From Candidatus Parcubacteria bacterium (GTDB lineage Bacteria; Patescibacteriota; Minisyncoccia; JACPXH01): a stretch of DNA of 64,000 bases. The DNA lies in the NCBI GenBank assembly GCA_016196625.1, contig JACPXH010000007.1:18631-82630 (forward strand), written 5' to 3'. Position 1 is the stretch's first letter. Every line of letters begins with the position of its first letter. This document shows positions 30,984 to 36,770 of the stretch, one piece after another. Made by a program: the position numbers and the translations under genes. The notes beneath the pieces are model-generated. The model searched no databases, was not told the origin of the DNA, and saw nothing but the letters and a program-made list of their open reading frames with translations.

Positions 30984-31136
30984 CTACGCGCGAATGAAAC
31001 CAGGAGCGATGTGTCTGGTCGGAGCGTGCCCATGGCGCCACTATAAACCGCGAGGCTCTTGGGCGCAAAGGCCATGAGCCTTGAGTCCAGCCGCGGAGTC
31101 AACTAGGGCAAATTCCGAGAGCCGTGGTTGGGGCGT

Positions 31137-31553
31137 TTACCGCCAAACCGCAAGAAGTGCGCCCATGACTAGGAGCGAGACGAGGTAGTAGCCGGCGTTG
31201 ATTTTGAGCAGCTTTACGGGTTTGCCTTCCCAGAGATAGGCAGCTAGAAACACCGGCGCGATAAACCCTAGCCAGAGCCAGAAGCCCGTCTTAGCGCCAA
31301 GCGCAGCAGTCTCGGCGCGGGTAAAGTACACAAAGTGCTGGAGCGTAGCCGCCATCACCAGCGCACCCACAAAACCAAGCGCGTAGGTGCGTTTCATCCC
31401 TTTCTTGCGCGACTCAAGTTCTTCGTGGCTCCAGCCCATCGCCTTGAGCCAGGCTTTGCCAAAGAGCGTGGGCGAGTACCAAGCTGCGCCGAGCGCCGTG
31501 CTGACGATGGCAGCGCCGATGATGGGCAGCCAGTTAAGGTAGAATTGGGGCAT
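31137..31553 (-). CDS. DUF1761-like small membrane protein
   Basis: 4 TM helices, WYSPTLFGKAW motif. Confidence 0.45.
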   Translation of the reverse strand: MPQFYLNWLPIIGAAIVSTALGAAWYSPTLFGKAWLKAMGWSHEELESRKKGMKRTYALGFVGALVMAATLQHFVYFTRAETAALGAKTGFWLWLGFIAPVFLAAYLWEGKPVKLLKINAGYYLVSLLVMGALLAVWR

Positions 31554-31610
31554 GTGTAGTCTCCTTGTGTATTAGTTTTTATGCAGAAAATTGACCGAAT
31601 TTCTGCAATT

Positions 31611-32066
31611 TTATTTTGTTTTTCTTTGACGACGCAACTTGCTCCTGAATCTCAGCAAATATCCATTTGCCTCCTTCGTAATAAAACTCTTTGTATCGTC
31701 CCCCTTATTAAAAAGACTCAATGCCTCTTTGAAAGAAAGCCAAGCAAACCCAGCGCCTTCATCGAATCTGAATTCTCTAGTTTTATATTTTGGATAAATG
31801 ATATAATGCATCTTCTCATTTTTATTGTGCGCTAAAACTTTGATGCATTTTTGTTCGACTGATACGCCAAGCTCTTCGTACAACTCACGTTCAAGCGCAT
31901 GGTTTGGATCATCTAAGTCTGCCGACTCGAGGGAGCCACCAAAATAGTCCCACTTATTTGGACTTGATATATCTCGTTTATCATCGCGCTTGTGGACTAA
32001 AACCAGTTTCTTATTTGGATCATAGAGGAAAAATCCAACCCGTGTGATTTTTTGCTTTCTTGGCAT
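31611..32066 (-). CDS. NUDIX hydrolase
   Basis: Nudix box GGSLESADLDDPNHALERELYEELGV. Confidence 0.75.
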   Translation of the reverse strand: MPRKQKITRVGFFLYDPNKKLVLVHKRDDKRDISSPNKWDYFGGSLESADLDDPNHALERELYEELGVSVEQKCIKVLAHNKNEKMHYIIYPKYKTREFRFDEGAGFAWLSFKEALSLFNKGDDTKSFITKEANGYLLRFRSKLRRQRKTK

Positions 32067-32483
32067 ATATCAAAGTATTATACGCTGAATTCAAAACGGC
32101 TTGAAATTTCCCCGAAAAACGGCTGGCGAGCCCGCGTATTTGTCCCTCGTAGCCCGAAGGGCGAAGTGGGAGCGGGCGAGCCAATGACTTCATTTCCTAA
32201 CTGGCGGTGTCTGTTTGAAAATATCCGAACGGAACTCTCTGGGCCCCGCCTGCGTTGAAACTTCGGCGGGCAGGTCGGCGGGCGGCCCCGCAACTATCTC
32301 GCTTCGCTCGAAGTGCGGGGTAAAAATTCCCCCCGACCCCCTGGAGTTTATCCCGCATAATCCCGAAGGGATTTGTGCGGGGCCCGCCTCGCCTTGCCTG
32401 CCCGACCGATAGGCGGGAACCGGAGCGGAAAGCATGCCCCGTAGTGAACGCGGAGCGTTCTACTACTGGGGGCGATTTCAAGT

Positions 32484-32819
32484 CTACATCGGCAACGGCA
32501 TTGATTCGTGCACTTCGATTTCACATCCACTTGACCACTCAAGATGGGGGTGTCCCTTAAGCATCGCTACGGCGTCTTTCATACTTTCAGCTTGCAGAAT
32601 TGAGTAGCCAACAACATCTTTGTCGCTCGGAGAGGTTCCGTCTTTGGTAACTTTTTGTCCATTAGCCAAAGGAGTTCCCATGTCCACAAGCCCACTACCA
32701 CATTTTTTAGCCCATGCCATCCACGGTTCCATCCCCTTTTTCATGTCTTCTGGGCTTACGTCTTTCATACCCGCCATTGCACTTTTTGACATGTGATAAA
32801 CTACAATAAATTTTTTCAT
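32484..32819 (-). CDS. YciI-like/DGPF-domain small protein (tentative)
   Basis: 111-aa ORF, loose resemblance to YciI-like alpha+beta barrel proteins. Confidence 0.3.
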   Translation of the reverse strand: MKKFIVVYHMSKSAMAGMKDVSPEDMKKGMEPWMAWAKKCGSGLVDMGTPLANGQKVTKDGTSPSDKDVVGYSILQAESMKDAVAMLKGHPHLEWSSGCEIEVHESMPLPM

Positions 32820-32917
32820 AGTCGTTGCATTTTTAATGATTTATTACTCGACCTTGATGGTATTGTACGCTAAGGAAAGAATGATCTCAAGTTTTTCTTT
32901 GGCGGCAATGCTGGAGA

Positions 32918-33208
32918 TTACAATCTGAAATAGAAAACAGGAGCACATGCCGCAAGTATGGCAACAATTTGAATTGCGAGGACCAAGAGCACTTGCTTTG
33001 GTCTCTGCGGCAACCACCTAATTGCGAAAAACGACACCATCAGTACTTCTAGAACTAGCCAAATTTGAAATAGATGTGCGCCCGTTCCTTCATCTGGCTG
33101 ACGGACGGGAACGCCGGATATCGCAATATAAATCAGCATTGTAGCCAAAACAATCAACGACATTGCTATTGGAATCCAAGCACTAGGCTTTTTTATTGTT
33201 GAATTCAT
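32918..33208 (-). CDS. small membrane protein (3 TM)
   Basis: 96-aa hydrophobic ORF; preceded by island repeat tctcaagtttttctttggcgg. Confidence 0.35.
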   Translation of the reverse strand: MNSTIKKPSAWIPIAMSLIVLATMLIYIAISGVPVRQPDEGTGAHLFQIWLVLEVLMVSFFAIRWLPQRPKQVLLVLAIQIVAILAACAPVFYFRL

Positions 33209-33394
33209 GGGCTTATCTCAAGTTTTTCTTTGGCGGAATACAAATTTGAGCGTGCGGAGTGCTCATGATTAGCTCTTTATAAAAAGAGGATGTGTGGTTC
33301 TATCGGTTGTGTTGCTCCAAGTCAGGATTTTTTCGGTAAAGAAAATATTGTACTAGAGTGATTCCCCACATGATAATGCCGACAGAAAAAGATA

Positions 33395-33592
33395 TTAGAG
33401 GTAGAAAGGCGTGGGTAGCATAAAAAAATGCAATTTGAGAAGCGTAAAAACATAGGCAATCAATATTGCCGTTACCGGTTGCCCGGATCTCTTTTCGCGA
33501 TAATTTTTTGCTATCTGGGCTGGTATGCCAACCAACACTAGGGTGAGTGCAAAAACGCTTACTAAAATGCTAAGAAAAAATATTAAGTCCAC
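33395..33592 (-). CDS. small membrane protein (65 aa)
   Basis: two TM helices; AT-rich. Confidence 0.25.
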   Translation of the reverse strand: MDLIFFLSILVSVFALTLVLVGIPAQIAKNYREKRSGQPVTAILIAYVFTLLKLHFFMLPTPFYL

Positions 33593-33783
33593 GATTATTT
33601 ACAGAATTATGGAAAAAATGTTTCTTTTGCCTTTATGGTTCGATAAGCTCACCACAGGTTGATACATCTTCTTCGTTTTCCTTGTCCGCCAAAGCCTTGG
33701 CGACGGCGGAGCCAAAAAATCCCTTTCAAATCCTAGCCGAGCGGCGCGTCCCGTGCCGCGAGCCAATGACTTCATTTCCCAAC

Positions 33784-33875
33784 TGGCGGTGGGCAGAGGA
33801 TTCGAACCTCTGTGGGATTTTTTAGATCCCCGCAGTTTAGCAAACTGCTGCCTTAAGCCACTCGGCCAGCCCACC
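33784..33875 (-). tRNA. tRNA-Ser (anticodon GCT), long variable arm, CCA encoded
   Basis: acceptor GGTGGGC/GCCCACC, D-arm TGGCCGAGTGG, anticodon stem GCAGT/ACTGC loop TTGCTAA, variable arm GGGGATCTAAAAAATCCCAC, T-loop TTCGAAT. Confidence 0.88.
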
Positions 33876-34004
33876 ATTTTAAATTTCTCGGCAAAGCCTA
33901 ATCAAGTCGTGGTCTCGTGTCTTCCCTGGCGACTTTTTGTCGCCCGTCAAAAGCTGCGCACGCTCGCTTTTGACCCACTCAGCCACGCCTCCTCCTTGTA
34001 TCCC

Positions 34005-34108
34005 TAACTGGCGGTGTATATTGAAAATAGCTCGAACGGAATTCTGTCCTCGCCCGCCTGCGGCGGGCTCGGGTCGGGAGGGCAAAAAATCCGCGCGGCT
34101 CCGCCGCG
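34005..34108. repeat. inverted repeat IRa-left (exact partner at 34870-34968); begins with tRNA-Ser 3'-end-like aactggcggtg and degenerate T-arm
   Basis: reverse complement of 34870-34968 matches over ~99 bp with no mismatches seen. Confidence 0.7.
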
Positions 34109-34148
34109 AACATTAACAATTTCAAGTTTTTCTTTGGCGGCAATTACG

Positions 34149-34790
34149 TTATTTTGAAAATTTAAAAGAATTGATCATTTCCAGAAATATCTCATCGGGT
34201 GCGGGCGCTTCTGTATCTCTCTGTTTGACCAGAAGATAAAGCCAACTATCCCTAGTCACAAATGCATTCTCAAGGTAACTATTTTCTCCCCCGAATGAGG
34301 CGTATATAACGGGAATGTATTTTCCTTTTACGCCATCGAAGAATGGTATTAATGCTTTTTCTTCCTCAATATCCCGAGGGAATCCAAGAAACGTATTGGA
34401 ATTCAAGAAGTTAAGATTTTGTGGTGAAGCGGTGAAGCTCGGCGCAACATATAATTCGGCCCCGCAAGAAAATTCCCTTTGATGAACTGGAGTAAAGCAA
34501 ATACTGTATAAAGAATTTAGTTTTGGTTCAGGGTAAAAATAAGGCGGTGGTATGGGATTCTTATCCTTGGGAAGTGTGTGGTCTTGTTCCAGTGGTTTTA
34601 AATCACTTGGATATTTTATCTCAAATCCATATTTTTCATTTCTATATGTTTTCCAGGTAAAAGTTTTAATCTGACTCAGAGGTTCCGGTTTTAGCGGCAG
34701 AGGAACATTTCCCGATTTTTTTGCAATAAAATAGCTTGCTAACACTATAATTGCAACGATTATTATTACCCAAGTTACTTTTGTTCTCAT
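34149..34790 (-). CDS. hypothetical secreted/membrane-anchored protein bracketed by IRa pair
   Basis: MRTKVTWVIIIVAIIVLASYF signal/anchor; AT-rich; ORF-track N-terminal extension is read-through of IRa. Confidence 0.5.
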   Translation of the reverse strand: MRTKVTWVIIIVAIIVLASYFIAKKSGNVPLPLKPEPLSQIKTFTWKTYRNEKYGFEIKYPSDLKPLEQDHTLPKDKNPIPPPYFYPEPKLNSLYSICFTPVHQREFSCGAELYVAPSFTASPQNLNFLNSNTFLGFPRDIEEEKALIPFFDGVKGKYIPVIYASFGGENSYLENAFVTRDSWLYLLVKQRDTEAPAPDEIFLEMINSFKFSK

Positions 34791-34869
34791 ATGATTAAAA
34801 AATTCCCCAAAAATTAAAATATGGTTCGAGCCGATTTGTTTTTCAGGTTCTTTGGCAGTTTGGGATCTT

Positions 34870-34968
34870 TGCGGCGGAGCCGCGCGGATTTTTTGCCCTC
34901 CCGACCCGAGCCCGCCGCAGGCGGGCGAGGACAGAATTCCGTTCGAGCTATTTTCAATATACACCGCA
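34870..34968. repeat. inverted repeat IRa-right
   Basis: see IRa-left. Confidence 0.7.
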
Positions 34969-35066
34969 AGTCAGGAAAACGCAAATTATGGACAGATGCC
35001 TCGCGGCGCGGGACGCGCCGCTCGGCTAGGGTTTGAAAGGGCTTTTTTGGCGAAAAGGAAAGGGAT
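34964..35066. repeat. inverted repeat IRb-left (partner 36478-36578, ~97% identical), abuts IRa-right
   Basis: caccgcaagtcaggaaaacgcaaattatggacagatgcctcgcggcgcgggacgcgccgctcggctagggtttgaaagggcttttttggcg is the reverse complement of 36478-36578. Confidence 0.7.
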
Positions 35067-35105
35067 TTATCAATCAGGGCAAAAGAATTTTTTAACTACA
35101 AAACT

Positions 35106-36656
35106 ATGAGATATATAATTTACGCGAGGAAATCCACGGAGAGTGAGGAACGACAGATATTAAGCATTGAATCTCAAATATCTGAATTGAAAGAATTTGC
35201 CGCCAAAGAAAAACTTGAAATTGTTGCCTCGCTTTGCGAAGCCCAAACTGCCAAAGAACCTGGGCGAATGAAATTCGCAGAGATGTTGTCATTTTTGGAA
35301 TCAGGAAAAGCAGACGGAATACTTTCTTGGAATCCAGATCGTCTCGCCAGAAATTCCATAGACGGAGGACAGATTATCTATCTGTTGGACACAGGAAAGA
35401 TAAAAGATTTGAAATTTCCAACGCACTGGTTTGAGAATACACCGCAAGGAAAATTCATGCTGAACATTGCCTTTGGGCAAAGCAAGTATTATGTGGACAA
35501 TTTGAGTGAGAACATCAAGCGTGGACATAGGGCAAAACTACGAAAAGGAATTTGGCCGAGCTTTGCCCCACTAGGATATACGAACAATCACAAAACGCGA
35601 GATGTTGATGTTGATTTGGAGAAAGCTCCGCTAGTCCGAAAAGGTTTTGAGCTTTACTCAACTGGTAAATATACCCTTAAGCAAATAGCTAAAATTTGGA
35701 AAGATCTCGGATTGCGGAGCTACAAAGGCAATGTTCTAGCAGTTTCCTGTGTCCAGCGAATTTTGAAAAGTACATTTTACTATGGAATTTTCGAGTTCAA
35801 TGGCGAGACGTATCAAGGTTCGCACGAGCCGTCAATCTCAAAGAAACTTTTTGATAACTGTCAGGAAATAATGAAGGATCGCGGACATATTATGACTAGA
35901 AAATCAGAGAAAACTTTTCCATTTCGCGGTTTGCTCACTTGTGGAGAATGTAAATGCGCCATTACCGCCGAAACACAAAAAGGACACAACTATTATCGTT
36001 GCACCAAGAAGCGCGAACTGTGTTCACAAAAATATGTCCGCGAAGAATTGCTCACCGAGCAAGTAAAAAGTTTTCTTCAAAAAGTTTCTTTGCCGAGCCA
36101 AGACATGGAAAAAGTTTTGCGCGAGTTGGACAAGGACGAGCAGAAAGCAAGAGAGGATAGTTTAGCTCTGGTTAGTACTTTGAAAAATGATTTAGTGGAC
36201 ATAGAAACAAGGTTAGACAAATTGCTTTCTGCTTACCTCGATAAAGTAATTACATCGGAAGAATATGCCGCGCAAAAACAAAAAATGCTCGACCAGAGAG
36301 TAGAGCTGAAAGAGAAAATTCATGAAATCGAGGATAAAGGCGTGTCTTGGCTCGAACCAGCTCGTGCGTGGATTAAATCCTTGAATCAAGCGGAGAAACT
36401 GCTTTTGTCTGGGGATAAGTCGGAAATGACAACATTTCTAAAACAAATCGGCTCGAACCATATTTTGATCGATAAATCCTTTTCTTTTTCGCCAAAAAAG
36501 CCCTTTCAAATCCTAGCCGAGCGGCGCGTTCCGCGCCGCGAGGCATCTGTCCATAATTTGCGTTTTCCTGACTTGCGGAAGCGGGAGGATTCGAACCTCC
36601 GAAGGGGACTAGCCCCCAACTGGTTTTTCCCGATTTTGTTCACGCGGAACGCGTGA
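35106..36656 (+). CDS. large serine recombinase (resolvase catalytic domain + recombinase domain + zinc ribbon); C-terminal ~40 codons likely read-through into IRb-right
   Basis: YARKSTESEERQ..SIESQ catalytic Ser motif, ILSWNPDRLARN, CGECKC..YYRC zinc ribbon, coiled-coil; AT-rich. Confidence 0.8.
   Translation: MRYIIYARKSTESEERQILSIESQISELKEFAAKEKLEIVASLCEAQTAKEPGRMKFAEMLSFLESGKADGILSWNPDRLARNSIDGGQIIYLLDTGKIKDLKFPTHWFENTPQGKFMLNIAFGQSKYYVDNLSENIKRGHRAKLRKGIWPSFAPLGYTNNHKTRDVDVDLEKAPLVRKGFELYSTGKYTLKQIAKIWKDLGLRSYKGNVLAVSCVQRILKSTFYYGIFEFNGETYQGSHEPSISKKLFDNCQEIMKDRGHIMTRKSEKTFPFRGLLTCGECKCAITAETQKGHNYYRCTKKRELCSQKYVREELLTEQVKSFLQKVSLPSQDMEKVLRELDKDEQKAREDSLALVSTLKNDLVDIETRLDKLLSAYLDKVITSEEYAAQKQKMLDQRVELKEKIHEIEDKGVSWLEPARAWIKSLNQAEKLLLSGDKSEMTTFLKQIGSNHILIDKSFSFSPKKPFQILAERRVPRREASVHNLRFPDLRKREDSNLRRGLAPNWFFPILFTRNA
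36478..36578. repeat. inverted repeat IRb-right
   Basis: see IRb-left. Confidence 0.7.
36579..36650 (-). pseudogene. tRNA 3'-half-like fragment (T-arm GGAGG-TTCGAAT-CCTCC + acceptor 3' strand, no matching 5' acceptor)
   Basis: ggaggattcgaacctcc on + strand; no complementary GGAAGCG 5' strand found. Confidence 0.4.
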
Positions 36657-36683
36657 TTACAAAATCGAGGATCCCGTCCAAAG

Positions 36684-36770
36684 CGGCGAGGGTGAGATTC
36701 GAACTCACGATACCCTTTCGGGTATACCTGTTTTCAAGACAGGTCTGTTCAACCACTCCAGCACCTCGCC
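36684..36770 (-). tRNA. tRNA-Ser (anticodon TGA), long variable arm, no encoded CCA
   Basis: acceptor GGCGAGG/CCTCGCC, anticodon stem CCTGT/ACAGG loop CTTGAAA, variable arm TATACCCGAAAGGGTATC, T-loop TTCGAAT. Confidence 0.85.

Follow-up and report, generated by a model that had tools for sequence, protein, structure and literature searches.

Large serine recombinases (LSRs) act on attP and attB sites of ~40 to 50 bp with a 2-bp crossover, the outer motif lying 5 bp further out in attP, and a canonical LSR element requires one attP only. Tyrosine integrases typically target tRNA 3' ends, which serine integrases seldom do. The invertases Hin, Gin, Cin, and Pin are small enzymes that act at ~26-bp sites with the help of an enhancer, thereby switching a promoter or alternative gene ends. 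In Patescibacteria (CPR), which have tiny genomes, few mobile elements have been recognised.

Here, we consider a locus in a 64,000-nt stretch of DNA from a Candidatus Parcubacteria bacterium (the whole of it is referred to as the window). A sequence-only reading had proposed either a Hin/Gin-type invertible segment or stacked attL/attR remnants of repeated integration into tRNA-Ser. We consider it probable that positions 33998 to 36578 represent a copy of an integrative element that is bipartite, ~2.6 kb long, and conserved in Patescibacteria; this copy is located at a tRNA-Ser 3' end and was presumably placed there by its own LSR. Judging by the genomes compared, the element is very common in Patescibacteria; its kind (LSR elements) is known, whereas the bipartite architecture appears to be a new variant. 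A full-text literature search returned no published description of the element family, and a search of a viral collection returned no match to the element.

RESULTS

The locus consists of two back-to-back modules, each within its own inverted arms, i.e., a cargo module (IRa-L, a variable gene, IRa-R) and a recombinase module (IRb-L, the LSR gene, IRb-R). The nested, near-perfect inverted-repeat pairs noted in the sequence-only reading are real. IRa, with a left outer arm at 33998 to 34113 (IRa-L) and an inner P-type arm at 34865 to 34980 (IRa-R), is 116 nt long and has 6 mismatches, every one within 13 nt of the arm ends, and an exact 97-nt run at 34011 to 34107. IRb, with an inner P'-type arm at 34964 to 35076 (IRb-L) and a right outer arm at 36466 to 36578 (IRb-R), is 113 nt long with 5 mismatches. 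The arm pairs of the window copy are 95 to 96% identical, and self-BLAST of an 8-kb region gave E-values of 4e-48 (IRa) and 1e-47 (IRb), which excludes chance for both pairs. As had also been stated, IRb flanks the serine recombinase gene and abuts IRa-R; the two inner arms overlap at the internal core CACCGCA (34962 to 34968). The crossover region GCGG of IRa-L is located at 34011 to 34014, and the core GCGG of IRb-R at 36575 to 36578. Read on the minus strand, IRa-L ends in ...ATACACCGCCA and is followed by non-repeated DNA. The start of IRa had been likened to a tRNA-Ser 3' end with a degenerate T-arm; indeed, the 8 nt at its terminus, CACCGCCA, also form the 3' end of tRNA-Ser(gct), and a degenerate T-loop, GTTCGAGC, is present. 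The region is a low-GC island (0.42 to 0.45 versus 0.58 in the remaining window).

The LSR gene (35106 to 36656, plus strand) lies between the IRb arms, with IRb-L just upstream of its promoter-like segment. Its product matches, in order, the Pfam domains Resolvase (PF00239; E, 2e-20), Recombinase (PF07508; 5e-15), and Zn_ribbon_recom (PF13408; 3e-10). The conserved protein is 455 aa long and ends near 36470 (..KQIGSNHILI), the remainder of the open reading frame running through IRb-R into a tRNA fragment. As read from the sequence, the N terminus is MRYIIYARKSTESEE, and Ser10, within the conserved N-terminal motif IIYARKSTESE (a Y-x-R-x-S context), is the predicted catalytic serine. Among solved structures, the only match by sequence at an E-value of 1e-5 or better was an N-terminal domain (3g13; E, 4e-8); homologues of the LSR number more than 7,000. 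Within the coding sequence, nt 121 to 136 (35226 to 35241, plus strand) form a hairpin, the stem of which shows compensatory changes between lineages, flanked by the segments c (nt 85 to 120; 35190 to 35225) and r5 (nt 137 to 157; 35242 to 35262). The element encodes just the LSR and one variable cargo gene; we found no conserved third gene for a directionality factor, the role of which could conceivably be taken by a host factor or by intrinsic bidirectionality.

The product of the cargo gene in the window copy (34149 to 34793, minus strand) is 214 aa long and has an N-terminal membrane anchor and a weak PsbP-like match below the Pfam cut-off. Across loci, the slot is occupied by unrelated genes (PsbP-like, HAD hydrolase, methyltransferase, LigT-like, and others). 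The surrounding DNA retains short remnants of the LSR gene (nt 85 to 120, 137 to 157, and 1335 to 1364), all on the minus strand and inverted relative to that gene: c' (34115 to 34150), the copy of c, touches the distal end of IRa-L; r3' (34813 to 34842) is an inverted copy of the recombinase 3' end (36440 to 36469); and r5' (34844 to 34864), the copy of r5, touches the distal end of IRa-R. In addition, a copy of the LSR promoter-like segment sits upstream of the cargo gene, so that both genes have a conserved promoter-like segment inside their own arms; it had been suggested to look for a promoter outside IRa. These four short segments co-vary with the cognate recombinase gene. By sequence, the cargo module is a circularly permuted, gutted copy of a recombinase module, opened at the hairpin of LSR nt 121 to 136. 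The variable region ends raggedly within the arms, between the promoter-like copy and c'. One locus (L026) is a recombinant at the c/r5 point. The likeness of c/r5 to the att core (a common GCCA and an A-rich run) is probably coincidental, the coding sequence being conserved across sublineages with different cores.

Intrinsic terminators are predicted in both IRa arms. A distal hairpin followed by a T-run in IRa-L (34094 to 34108, minus strand) is the predicted terminator of the cargo gene and recurs in an alignment of 15 loci; its counterpart in IRa-R lies at 34870 to 34884 on the plus strand, and a second IRa hairpin covaries. We also considered whether a small RNA might start at an antisense promoter and end at the IRa-R terminator, but dismissed this, since there is only a weak consensus match in the variable cargo gene, and it is not conserved.

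The tRNA 3' fragment reported earlier at 36579 to 36650 (minus strand) was identified as a tRNA-Ser-like 3' part with variable arm, T-arm GGAGGTTCGAATCCTCC, and acceptor, which would constitute the B arm of an attL-like junction. Neither ARAGORN nor Rfam called a tRNA at this position; the fragment is nearly identical to the 3' part of an intact tRNA-Ser(tga) in another locus (L030). In the window, an intact tRNA-Ser(tga) follows 32 nt past the fragment (36683 to 36770, minus strand). On the other side, tRNA-Ser(gct) (33784 to 33875, minus strand) is followed by an IRb-like stretch (33711 to 33783), likewise noticed before, of which 33711 to 33765 is 93% identical to both IRb arms; it resembles an attL remnant of another element of the family.

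Three junctions can be compared: tRNA/core/IRb on the right, IRa/core/unrelated host DNA on the left, and IRa/core/IRb, in the opposite orientation, in the middle. A short core is common to all three and matches the target tRNA in its last acceptor bases, discriminator, and CCA. By sequence, the junction of the tRNA and IRb-R looks like attL and that of IRa-L and the host flank like attR, and the internal IRa-R/IRb-L junction would be a complete attP-type site (P/core/P'), inverted relative to both. In 17 loci, the left boundary lies immediately behind ACACCGC(CA), beyond which the flanks are unrelated, and in other sublineages the core matches the end of their own target tRNA (e.g., GCACCA, CCACCA, GAGCCA). 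Comparison of junctions narrows the crossover to CCGC in the Ser sublineage or GCA in the Leu/Arg sublineage. A GTTCG motif lies 29 nt from the P-arm end and 24 nt from that of the tRNA in the Ser and Leu/Ile sublineages (counted by hand), which would match the 5-bp offset between LSR attP and attB half-sites that Rutherford et al. reportedly described in 2013. The junction grammar {tRNA or P arm}/core/{P' arm or flank} is obeyed throughout 94 loci, among which there are no palindromic junctions. A palindromic crossover dinucleotide was rejected as the cause of the inverted sites, the crossover sequences (CCG in the Ser sublineage versus GCA in Leu/Arg) not being consistently palindromic.

The same layout was found in ~60 loci from many Patescibacteria metagenome-assembled genomes with recombinases 53 to 93% identical to the LSR of the window, a range that excludes a shared recent ancestor for these loci. 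The shared order is host flank/IRa, one variable gene, IRa/IRb, the recombinase gene, and IRb/tRNA 3' end on the opposite strand. LSR copies that are 75 to 93% identical occur in many candidate phyla. A tRNA gene on the opposite strand lies no more than 260 nt from the LSR 3' end in 55 of the 61 loci with a complete LSR gene; its 3' end touches or overlaps IRb-R, and in most other loci the tRNA there is intact. The element is found at different tRNA-Ser isoacceptors with unrelated flanks in different genomes, and the genes flanking it in the window have only 65 to 72% DNA similarity to Patescibacteria loci. The comparison with sister genomes that had been suggested shows the nested IRa/IRb pairs not only in close relatives but also in relatives with an LSR identity of only 53 to 64%, where the arms within one locus are mostly 98 to 100% identical and the targets include Leu, Arg, Lys, Tyr, Ile, Phe, Ala, Glu, Val, Trp, Gly, and Asn tRNAs. 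The target tRNA (Ser, Leu, Arg, Lys, and others) varies with the recombinase sublineage, and the core matches it in each case. The family also includes tandem arrays (L086) and ~280-nt miniature derivatives bounded by IRb and IRa (L082, L088, L093).

Both modules have a constant orientation in every genome locus examined. Of 120 protein tails of LSR homologues, 1 indicates the flipped state. A targeted metagenome scan returned six contigs (L083, L084, L085, L087, L090, L092) in which a reversed LSR gene comes after IRa-R/core/IRb. These contigs may be real or short-read misassemblies, since they start or stop within perfect ~100-nt repeats. In one further locus, a module also has the other orientation; a purely static architecture does not predict such flips. 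Conceivably, then, modules do invert on occasion.

DISCUSSION

In the model that we favor, IRa and IRb would be the P and P' arms of attP and the outer junctions attL and attR, by analogy with established LSR biology. Recombination of attP with attB would integrate the element into the tRNA 3' end and rebuild the tRNA, IRb providing it with a new downstream hairpin, and the whole unit would be excised between the two outer cores, which are direct repeats. The cargo module would now function as an expression slot for one accessory gene, with its own promoter-like copy and terminator, and the distal IRa hairpins with their T-runs would stop transcription leaving the module on both sides. Excision by recombination of attL and attR is an assumption, because no conserved directionality factor is encoded. 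A scan for IRa/core/IRb followed by the LSR 3' end recovered no circular form, and no empty allele of the same locus was seen; the sole c-IRa/core/IRb-rc(LSR) junction found belongs to a tandem array of two different elements. A search for LSR genes whose full 3' end runs into the cargo promoter-like copy gave 0 cases versus 22 standard junctions, and both the circle junction and a tandem isomer were rejected. The window copy itself may be old or immobile, given that the tRNA at its right junction is a 3' fragment and that its arms are 95 to 96% identical. Of note, the model does not require the internal inverted attP copy, the near-identity of the arms, or the four short co-varying segments.

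Possibly, the duplicated arms exist for the inversion or exchange of modules, an explanation that is compatible with integration as an LSR element and would give the internal site a function, but that we regard as fairly unlikely. Each module is bounded by two inverted att-type cores, and the LSR could flip it or swap it with another copy by two crossovers, keeping a constant frame while cargo genes and recombinase modules are shuffled, as in engineered cassette exchange. The six metagenome contigs with a reversed LSR gene would fit such a process, as would L094 and the protein tail of P0007, in which an LSR module lies between two mirror-image cargo modules with different IRa types. Arms also reassort: IRb-L and IRb-R differ in type in L008 and L094, the IRa-L of L032 goes with a cargo common to L001 while its IRa-R differs, and the cargo can be unrelated between otherwise close elements. 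Against this stand the constant orientation in all genome loci with both arms, the rarity of the flipped state among LSR tails, and the possibility of misjoins in the flipped contigs. Moreover, exchange at the cores predicts that variable regions end at cores, whereas they end raggedly inside the arms, and canonical LSRs are not known to synapse attP with attL or attR.

It seems unlikely that the locus is a three-site serine-recombinase device, the function of which depends on internal complementarity. The placement of the two arm pairs and the four short segments would allow one strand to fold into a perfect three-way junction (IRb stem, promoter:promoter', and r3:r3') or, alternatively, a perfect four-way junction (IRa stem, c:c', r5:r5', and the hairpin of nt 121 to 136). 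Inversion between r3 and r3' would place the three cores in direct orientation, yielding a miniature plus a simple element, and excision from this isomer would release the known free miniature elements. Isomerisation or a folded single-stranded DNA or RNA form would be possible mechanisms. Such a device would offer a minimal element lacking a directionality factor a way to control excision, module exchange, or recombinase expression; to our knowledge, no such control by isomerisation or folding has been described for serine recombinases. A folded single strand as a direct integration substrate was discarded on logical grounds: stacked IRa and IRb stems would rebuild a duplex attP, yet the product would be a broken chromosome with hairpin-capped ends.

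A further explanation, which we judge improbable, is that the modules are two independent transposon-like units, each a circle with a perfectly palindromic attP (IRb/core/IRb or IRa/core/IRa), the cargo unit being non-autonomous and mobilised in trans. Integration via the centre of the palindrome would generate terminal inverted repeats and so account for the inverted arms with a core at the outer ends of each module. It would also explain why the cargo interior is an exact circular permutation of a recombinase module, opened at nt 121 to 136, the recombinase module being opened between its 3' end and promoter; L094 resembles a recombinase module inserted between two cargo modules. However, no locus contains a palindromic circle junction, the relative order and orientation of the modules are constant, and IRa would need to serve as an element-type half-site in one reaction but as a target-type one in the other. 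Nor did we find a recombinase module without adjoining IRa-R and r3'/r5' segments, an adjacency that a script detected in 39 to 43 of 51 loci and that was seen by eye in three loci it missed (L038, L052, L064).

A Hin/Gin-type inverton, a switch in which the recombinase inverts the IRa and/or IRb segment to turn a surface-protein gene on or off, is very unlikely. Its appeal lies in the long inverted repeats flanking a membrane-anchored protein gene beside a serine recombinase gene, and in the rare flipped recombinase modules of the metagenome contigs. The enzyme, however, is an LSR of more than 455 aa, unlike an invertase of ~190 aa with a C-terminal helix-turn-helix, and the ~100-nt arms are att arms tied to a tRNA end. 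With the promoter-like copy and the terminator flipping along with the cargo gene, inversion would leave expression unchanged; alternative gene ends are not present, and the cargo product is in many cases something other than a surface protein (HAD hydrolase, methyltransferase, LigT-like). Since the promoter-like segments lie inside the arms and lineages do not differ in orientation, the repeats do not look like an expression switch, and phase variation is not supported.

Finally, the proposal of stacked, decaying attL/attR remnants of repeated independent integrations into tRNA-Ser, without an architecture of their own, holds insofar as the repeats are att arms at tRNA 3' ends and the island does contain remnants (the attL-like stretch after tRNA-Ser(gct), a 34-nt direct repeat at 32176 to 32209 and 33758 to 33791, the tRNA 3' fragment and a decayed tRNA 5' half, and an LSR-less IRa/core/IRb unit at 32085 to 32254), but for the two nested pairs it is hardly tenable and already contradicted by the recurrence of the nested layout in ~60 loci, across sublineages with different tRNA targets. 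In these loci, the breakpoints coincide to the nucleotide, the arms are near-identical, and the LSR gene is intact.

Returning to the bipartite integrative element, its family is abundant, with over 7,000 recombinase homologues and near-identical copies across many candidate phyla, retargets to almost any tRNA through changes of a few bases beside the core, and carries one exchangeable gene, often for a cell-surface protein; for these reasons, it is likely to be a major route of gene flow in Patescibacteria. The family also offers compact serine recombinases of natural origin, the tRNA-end targets of which are predictable and programmable and the att sites of which are readable directly from genomes; this is useful in genome engineering. 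Neither the inverted attP conserved inside the element nor the short segments that co-vary are explained by current serine integrase models; they may point to a novel control of directionality or module exchange.

Among known systems, tRNA islands of tyrosine integrases are likewise bounded by a tRNA 3' end on one side and by a short repeat of that end on the other and show a tRNA rebuilt by element sequence, tandem accretion, and a deviant base composition, but the present element has an enzyme of another family, a direct repeat of 4 to 9 nt, a minimal size of 2.6 kb, and inverted arms. The SSV-type "suicidal" archaeal integrases (PMC7253208) integrate via a site inside the recombinase gene, which leads to the order seen in the cargo module (C-terminal recombinase part, remainder, N-terminal part); these are tyrosine integrases, with the split gene as the only copy. 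Here, in contrast, only short remnants are retained, an intact LSR copy is adjacent, and the split is flanked by IRa arms with no tRNA.

Engineered recombinase-mediated cassette exchange shares the principle that a segment between two inverted sites can be flipped or exchanged and not excised. In the element, cargo variation has its limits within the arms, and for the action of the natural enzyme the comparison is one of layout alone. As in Hin, Gin, Cin, and Pin systems, a serine recombinase gene lies between inverted repeats (compare hin between hixL and hixR) beside a variable surface-protein gene, but the large enzyme, the att-arm repeats at a tRNA end, the promoter-like segments inside the arms, and the constant orientation set the element apart. 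Compared with LSR elements (phiC31, Bxb1, A118/LI; TnpX of Tn4451, TndX of Tn5397; Ccr of SCCmec), it differs in its tRNA-gene 3' end targets, in the inverted duplication of both ~100-nt att arms that creates a third, internal attP-type site, in lacking a directionality factor gene, and in a single-gene cargo slot derived from a permuted recombinase remnant. With these same elements, it shares the domain set Resolvase, Recombinase, and zinc ribbon, the short crossover core, an apparent 5-nt outer-motif offset between the putative half-sites, and a recombinase gene adjoining the att site, and it is, like the TnpX and TndX elements, small and equipped with no other mobility gene.

Two nested inverted-repeat pairs around a cargo gene and a recombinase gene

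Both inverted-repeat pairs claimed in the sequence-only reading are present (self-BLAST of the 8-kb region, E ~1e-47). The arms of the first pair, IRa (33998-34113 and 34865-34980; 116 nt, with an exact run of 97 nt at 34011-34107 and 6 mismatches, all close to the arm ends), enclose a cargo gene for a 214-aa membrane-anchored protein, and those of the second, IRb (34964-35076 and 36466-36578; 113 nt, 5 mismatches), enclose the gene of a large serine recombinase (LSR). IRa and IRb arms meet at the core CACCGCA (34962-34968). The claimed copy of the tRNA-Ser 3' end is borne out, the IRa terminus CACCGCCA being that of tRNA-Ser(gct); likewise, a 55-nt stretch 3' of that tRNA is IRb-like, and a tRNA 3' part overlooked by tRNA finders does occupy 36579-36650. 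The GC content is 42% in the element, 45% in the surrounding island (about 31100-36680), and 58% in the remaining window. The window copy may be old: identity between its arms is 95-96%, its promoter-like copy has degenerated, and only a truncated tRNA stands at attL.

Homologues of this LSR number in the thousands. A scan for relatives, limited to one genome per species, gave 80 loci, nearly all from Patescibacteria MAGs, in which LSR identity was 75-93% across many candidate phyla and 53-64% in a further set. Among the 61 loci with a complete LSR gene and enough flank, 55 have a tRNA gene on the opposite strand no more than 260 nt from the LSR 3' end, and the stretch between the two is the right IRb arm, its start coinciding with the final tRNA bases. 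The recurrent order 5' of the LSR is r3' and r5' (inverted copies of the LSR gene segments r3 and r5), right IRa arm, core, left IRb arm, promoter-like segment, and ATG. The second, inverted copy of IRa lies 0.9 to 1.4 kb farther left and terminates exactly at ACACCGC(CA), beyond which the DNA is different at every locus. Distant relatives also carry both nested pairs, with arms mostly 98-100% identical within a locus, at tRNAs for Leu, Arg, Lys, Tyr, Ile, Phe, Ala, Glu, Val, Trp, Gly, and Asn, and with cores that match the target end (e.g., GCACCA, CCACCA, and GAGCCA). Neither assembly artefact nor chance can be the origin of the two pairs.

Assembly ends fall within the repeat arms at L004, L006, L009, L012, L085, and other contigs; because many assemblies break there, the family is probably assembled incompletely and counted too low in short-read MAGs. 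At the right junctions of L001 and L078, the tRNA-side arm has a common decayed T-arm-like sequence, AGGTTCTnACnTCGTCCACTAC, before the core and no tRNA, despite the different cores (CCGCCA and GCACCA) of these two loci.

Putative attachment-site junctions

Along the tRNA sense strand, the right end of the element runs from tRNA through core to IRb, and its left end from IRa through core to host DNA; in the middle, on the opposite strand, IRa passes through a core into IRb. As judged from sequence, this is the grammar of putative attL, attR, and attP sites, in which IRa would be the P arm and IRb the P' arm. Every junction obeys it in 94 of 94 loci, among which no palindromic junction was found. 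Of the proposal that the repeats are stacked att remnants of repeated integration, the att-type junctions stand; for the two nested pairs, a random pile-up of remnants is excluded. Comparison of junctions placed the crossover within CCGC for the Ser sublineage and within GCA for Leu/Arg. In both sublineages, a T-loop-like GTTCG lies 29 nt from the P-arm end, compared with 24 nt in the tRNA. Work on the LI integrase reportedly identified an outer motif 5 bp farther out in attP than in attB as a hallmark of LSR sites, and the spacing seen here may represent the same offset.

Tandem arrays of units bounded by IRb and IRa (L086) and miniature units of ~280 nt, in which only IRb, r3', r5', and IRa lie between two cores (L082:337-602, L088:79-348, and L093:81-349; search pattern on the plus strand, L093 reverse-complemented), indicate that such units are handled as elements. 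The miniature units appear to be non-autonomous, MITE-like derivatives.

A permuted cargo slot

IRa encloses one gene per locus (two in L026), ~130 to 255 aa long and on the strand opposite the LSR. These genes are unrelated among loci and encode PsbP-like and other membrane-anchored proteins, a HAD hydrolase, a methyltransferase, and a LigT-like phosphoesterase, as well as proteins that, from reading their sequences, we take to be GtrA-like and MOSC-like. The frame around the cargo gene is constant and is assembled from parts of the LSR module in inverted form: its promoter-like segment is copied there, r3' (LSR nt 1335-1364) and r5' (nt 137-157) adjoin the right IRa arm, and c' (nt 85-120) adjoins the left. 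Together these parts follow promoter plus LSR in an exactly circularly permuted order, with the opening at nt 121-136, which in the intact gene form a hairpin whose stem changes are compensatory among lineages (GCTTCGC/GCGAAGC, GCTTCC/GGAAGC, and GCCTCG/CGAGGC). The breakpoints of the short pieces are constant family-wide. Lineage-specific variants of the short segments appear in both copies: c' matches its own LSR at 23-24 of 24 positions in 14 of 16 loci and those of other loci at 21 on average; for r5', the corresponding matches are 17-18 of 18 and 15 on average.

The cargo module has the order C-part, rest, N-part, which archaeal SSV-type elements acquire when they integrate via a site in the recombinase gene (PMC7253208). 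We read the cargo module as a possible ancient remnant of such within-gene integration that would now serve for expression of the inserted gene. Toward c', the variable region ends raggedly, with 17 to 36 nt of c' left, which points to illegitimate gene replacement rather than site-specific cassette capture.

The two tandem cargo genes of L026 arise where the core of one cargo unit is joined directly to another unit via a common GCCA (core CCGCCA, r5 CTGCCA; position 1160, minus strand). In L029 (4885-5010), tRNA-Ser on the recombinase strand is followed by 25 nt and then by an LSR gene cut just before the nt 121-136 hairpin; the breakpoint of this rearrangement is the point at which the cargo module is permuted.

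The arms contain hairpins of their own. In both IRa arms the distal hairpin and its T-run form a predicted terminator, which on the minus strand would end the cargo gene and on the plus strand would block transcription of the cargo module from entering the LSR. At three pairs of a second IRa hairpin, GC-to-CG swaps in 5 of 15 loci leave the stem intact. The GC-rich IRb hairpin, directly 3' of the tRNA, varies in sequence among loci and keeps its stem as read by eye; conceivably, it could substitute for the tRNA terminator displaced by the element.

Orientation of the modules

A phase-variable switch of the Hin/Gin type, as had been suggested, is unlikely: the enzyme is no small invertase, the repeats are att arms, and the cargo is often no surface protein. 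Also against it, the cargo gene's own promoter-like copy and terminator sit inside the arms. The check on relatives likewise went against a switch, the same layout and orientation recurring in the mapped loci: c' adjoins the left IRa arm and r5' the right in 15 of 15 close and 16 of 16 distant loci, and the tRNA invariably lies on the side of the LSR 3' end.

The LSR reading frame has no stop before the right IRb arm and runs through it into the DNA past the core (36470-36656 in the window; homologues P0001-P0120), so that its C-terminal tail reports the neighboring sequence. Tails are tRNA derived (..WRRGWDSNPR..) or P-arm derived (..WRCLLDKVRNYFEQNP..); of 120, ~65 enter a tRNA, ~14 enter P-arm-like sequence (arrays), and one, P0007, enters IRa and r5. 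At the locus of the latter, L094, two cargo modules that differ in type flank the LSR module as mirror images. Metagenome contigs were scanned specifically for IRa, core, and IRb followed by a reversed LSR 3' end; of the 13 contigs returned, 6 have the LSR module flipped. These may be short-read misjoins, as L085, the only contig with its repeats compared, begins and ends within repeats. Inversion may happen occasionally, through homologous recombination or through LSR activity; regulated switching is improbable.

Neighboring remnants in the low-GC island

A 34-nt direct repeat (32176-32209 and 33758-33791), comprising the tRNA-Ser(gct) 3' end plus 26 nt, encloses a 1.6-kb low-GC segment without a recombinase. 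Its small genes encode a YCII-like protein (32484-32819), a 96-aa membrane protein (32918-33208), and a 65-aa protein (33395-33592), and it looks like a decayed or non-autonomous member of the element family. Between these genes, with unrelated flanks, lie further copies of the c motif ATCTCAAGTTTTTCTTTGGCGG (LSR nt 95-116, inverted) at 32884-32905 and 33215-33236; the 20 nt next to the latter are common to the cargo modules of L023, L024, and L026. At 32085-32254 (minus strand), IRa, core, and IRb recur as a GC-rich variant unit, which is homologous to the region 5' of the LSR in L028 and L017 and is followed by NUDIX and DUF1761 genes (31137-32066) in place of their recombinase. An apparent decayed tRNA-Ser 5' half (GGAGGCGTGGCTGAGTGGGTCAAAAGC...), not called by ARAGORN or Rfam, abuts the attR-like junction of the element at 33895-33985 (minus strand).

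Relation to known recombinase elements

For a canonical LSR element one attP suffices. The internal inverted attP, the near-identical arms, and the co-varying short segments are required by no finding here. Arms and modules reassort in the mosaic loci L008, L032, and L094, as would fit exchange at the cores or close to them. In geometric terms, the complementarity of the segments would allow one strand to fold into a perfect three-way junction atop the IRb stem and a perfect four-way junction atop the IRa stem, and inversion at r3/r3' would give a miniature and a simple element with all cores direct, an isomer that was sought and not found. The element encodes no directionality factor, and neither a circular form nor an empty site was recovered among the loci and metagenome contigs searched.

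A full-text search of the literature returned no description of the family. Apparently undescribed are the targeting of tRNA ends throughout an entire radiation of sublineages, the duplication of the arms in inverted form together with a third att site, and the permuted cargo slot. The enzyme and the integration logic of the Patescibacteria element are those of known LSR elements.
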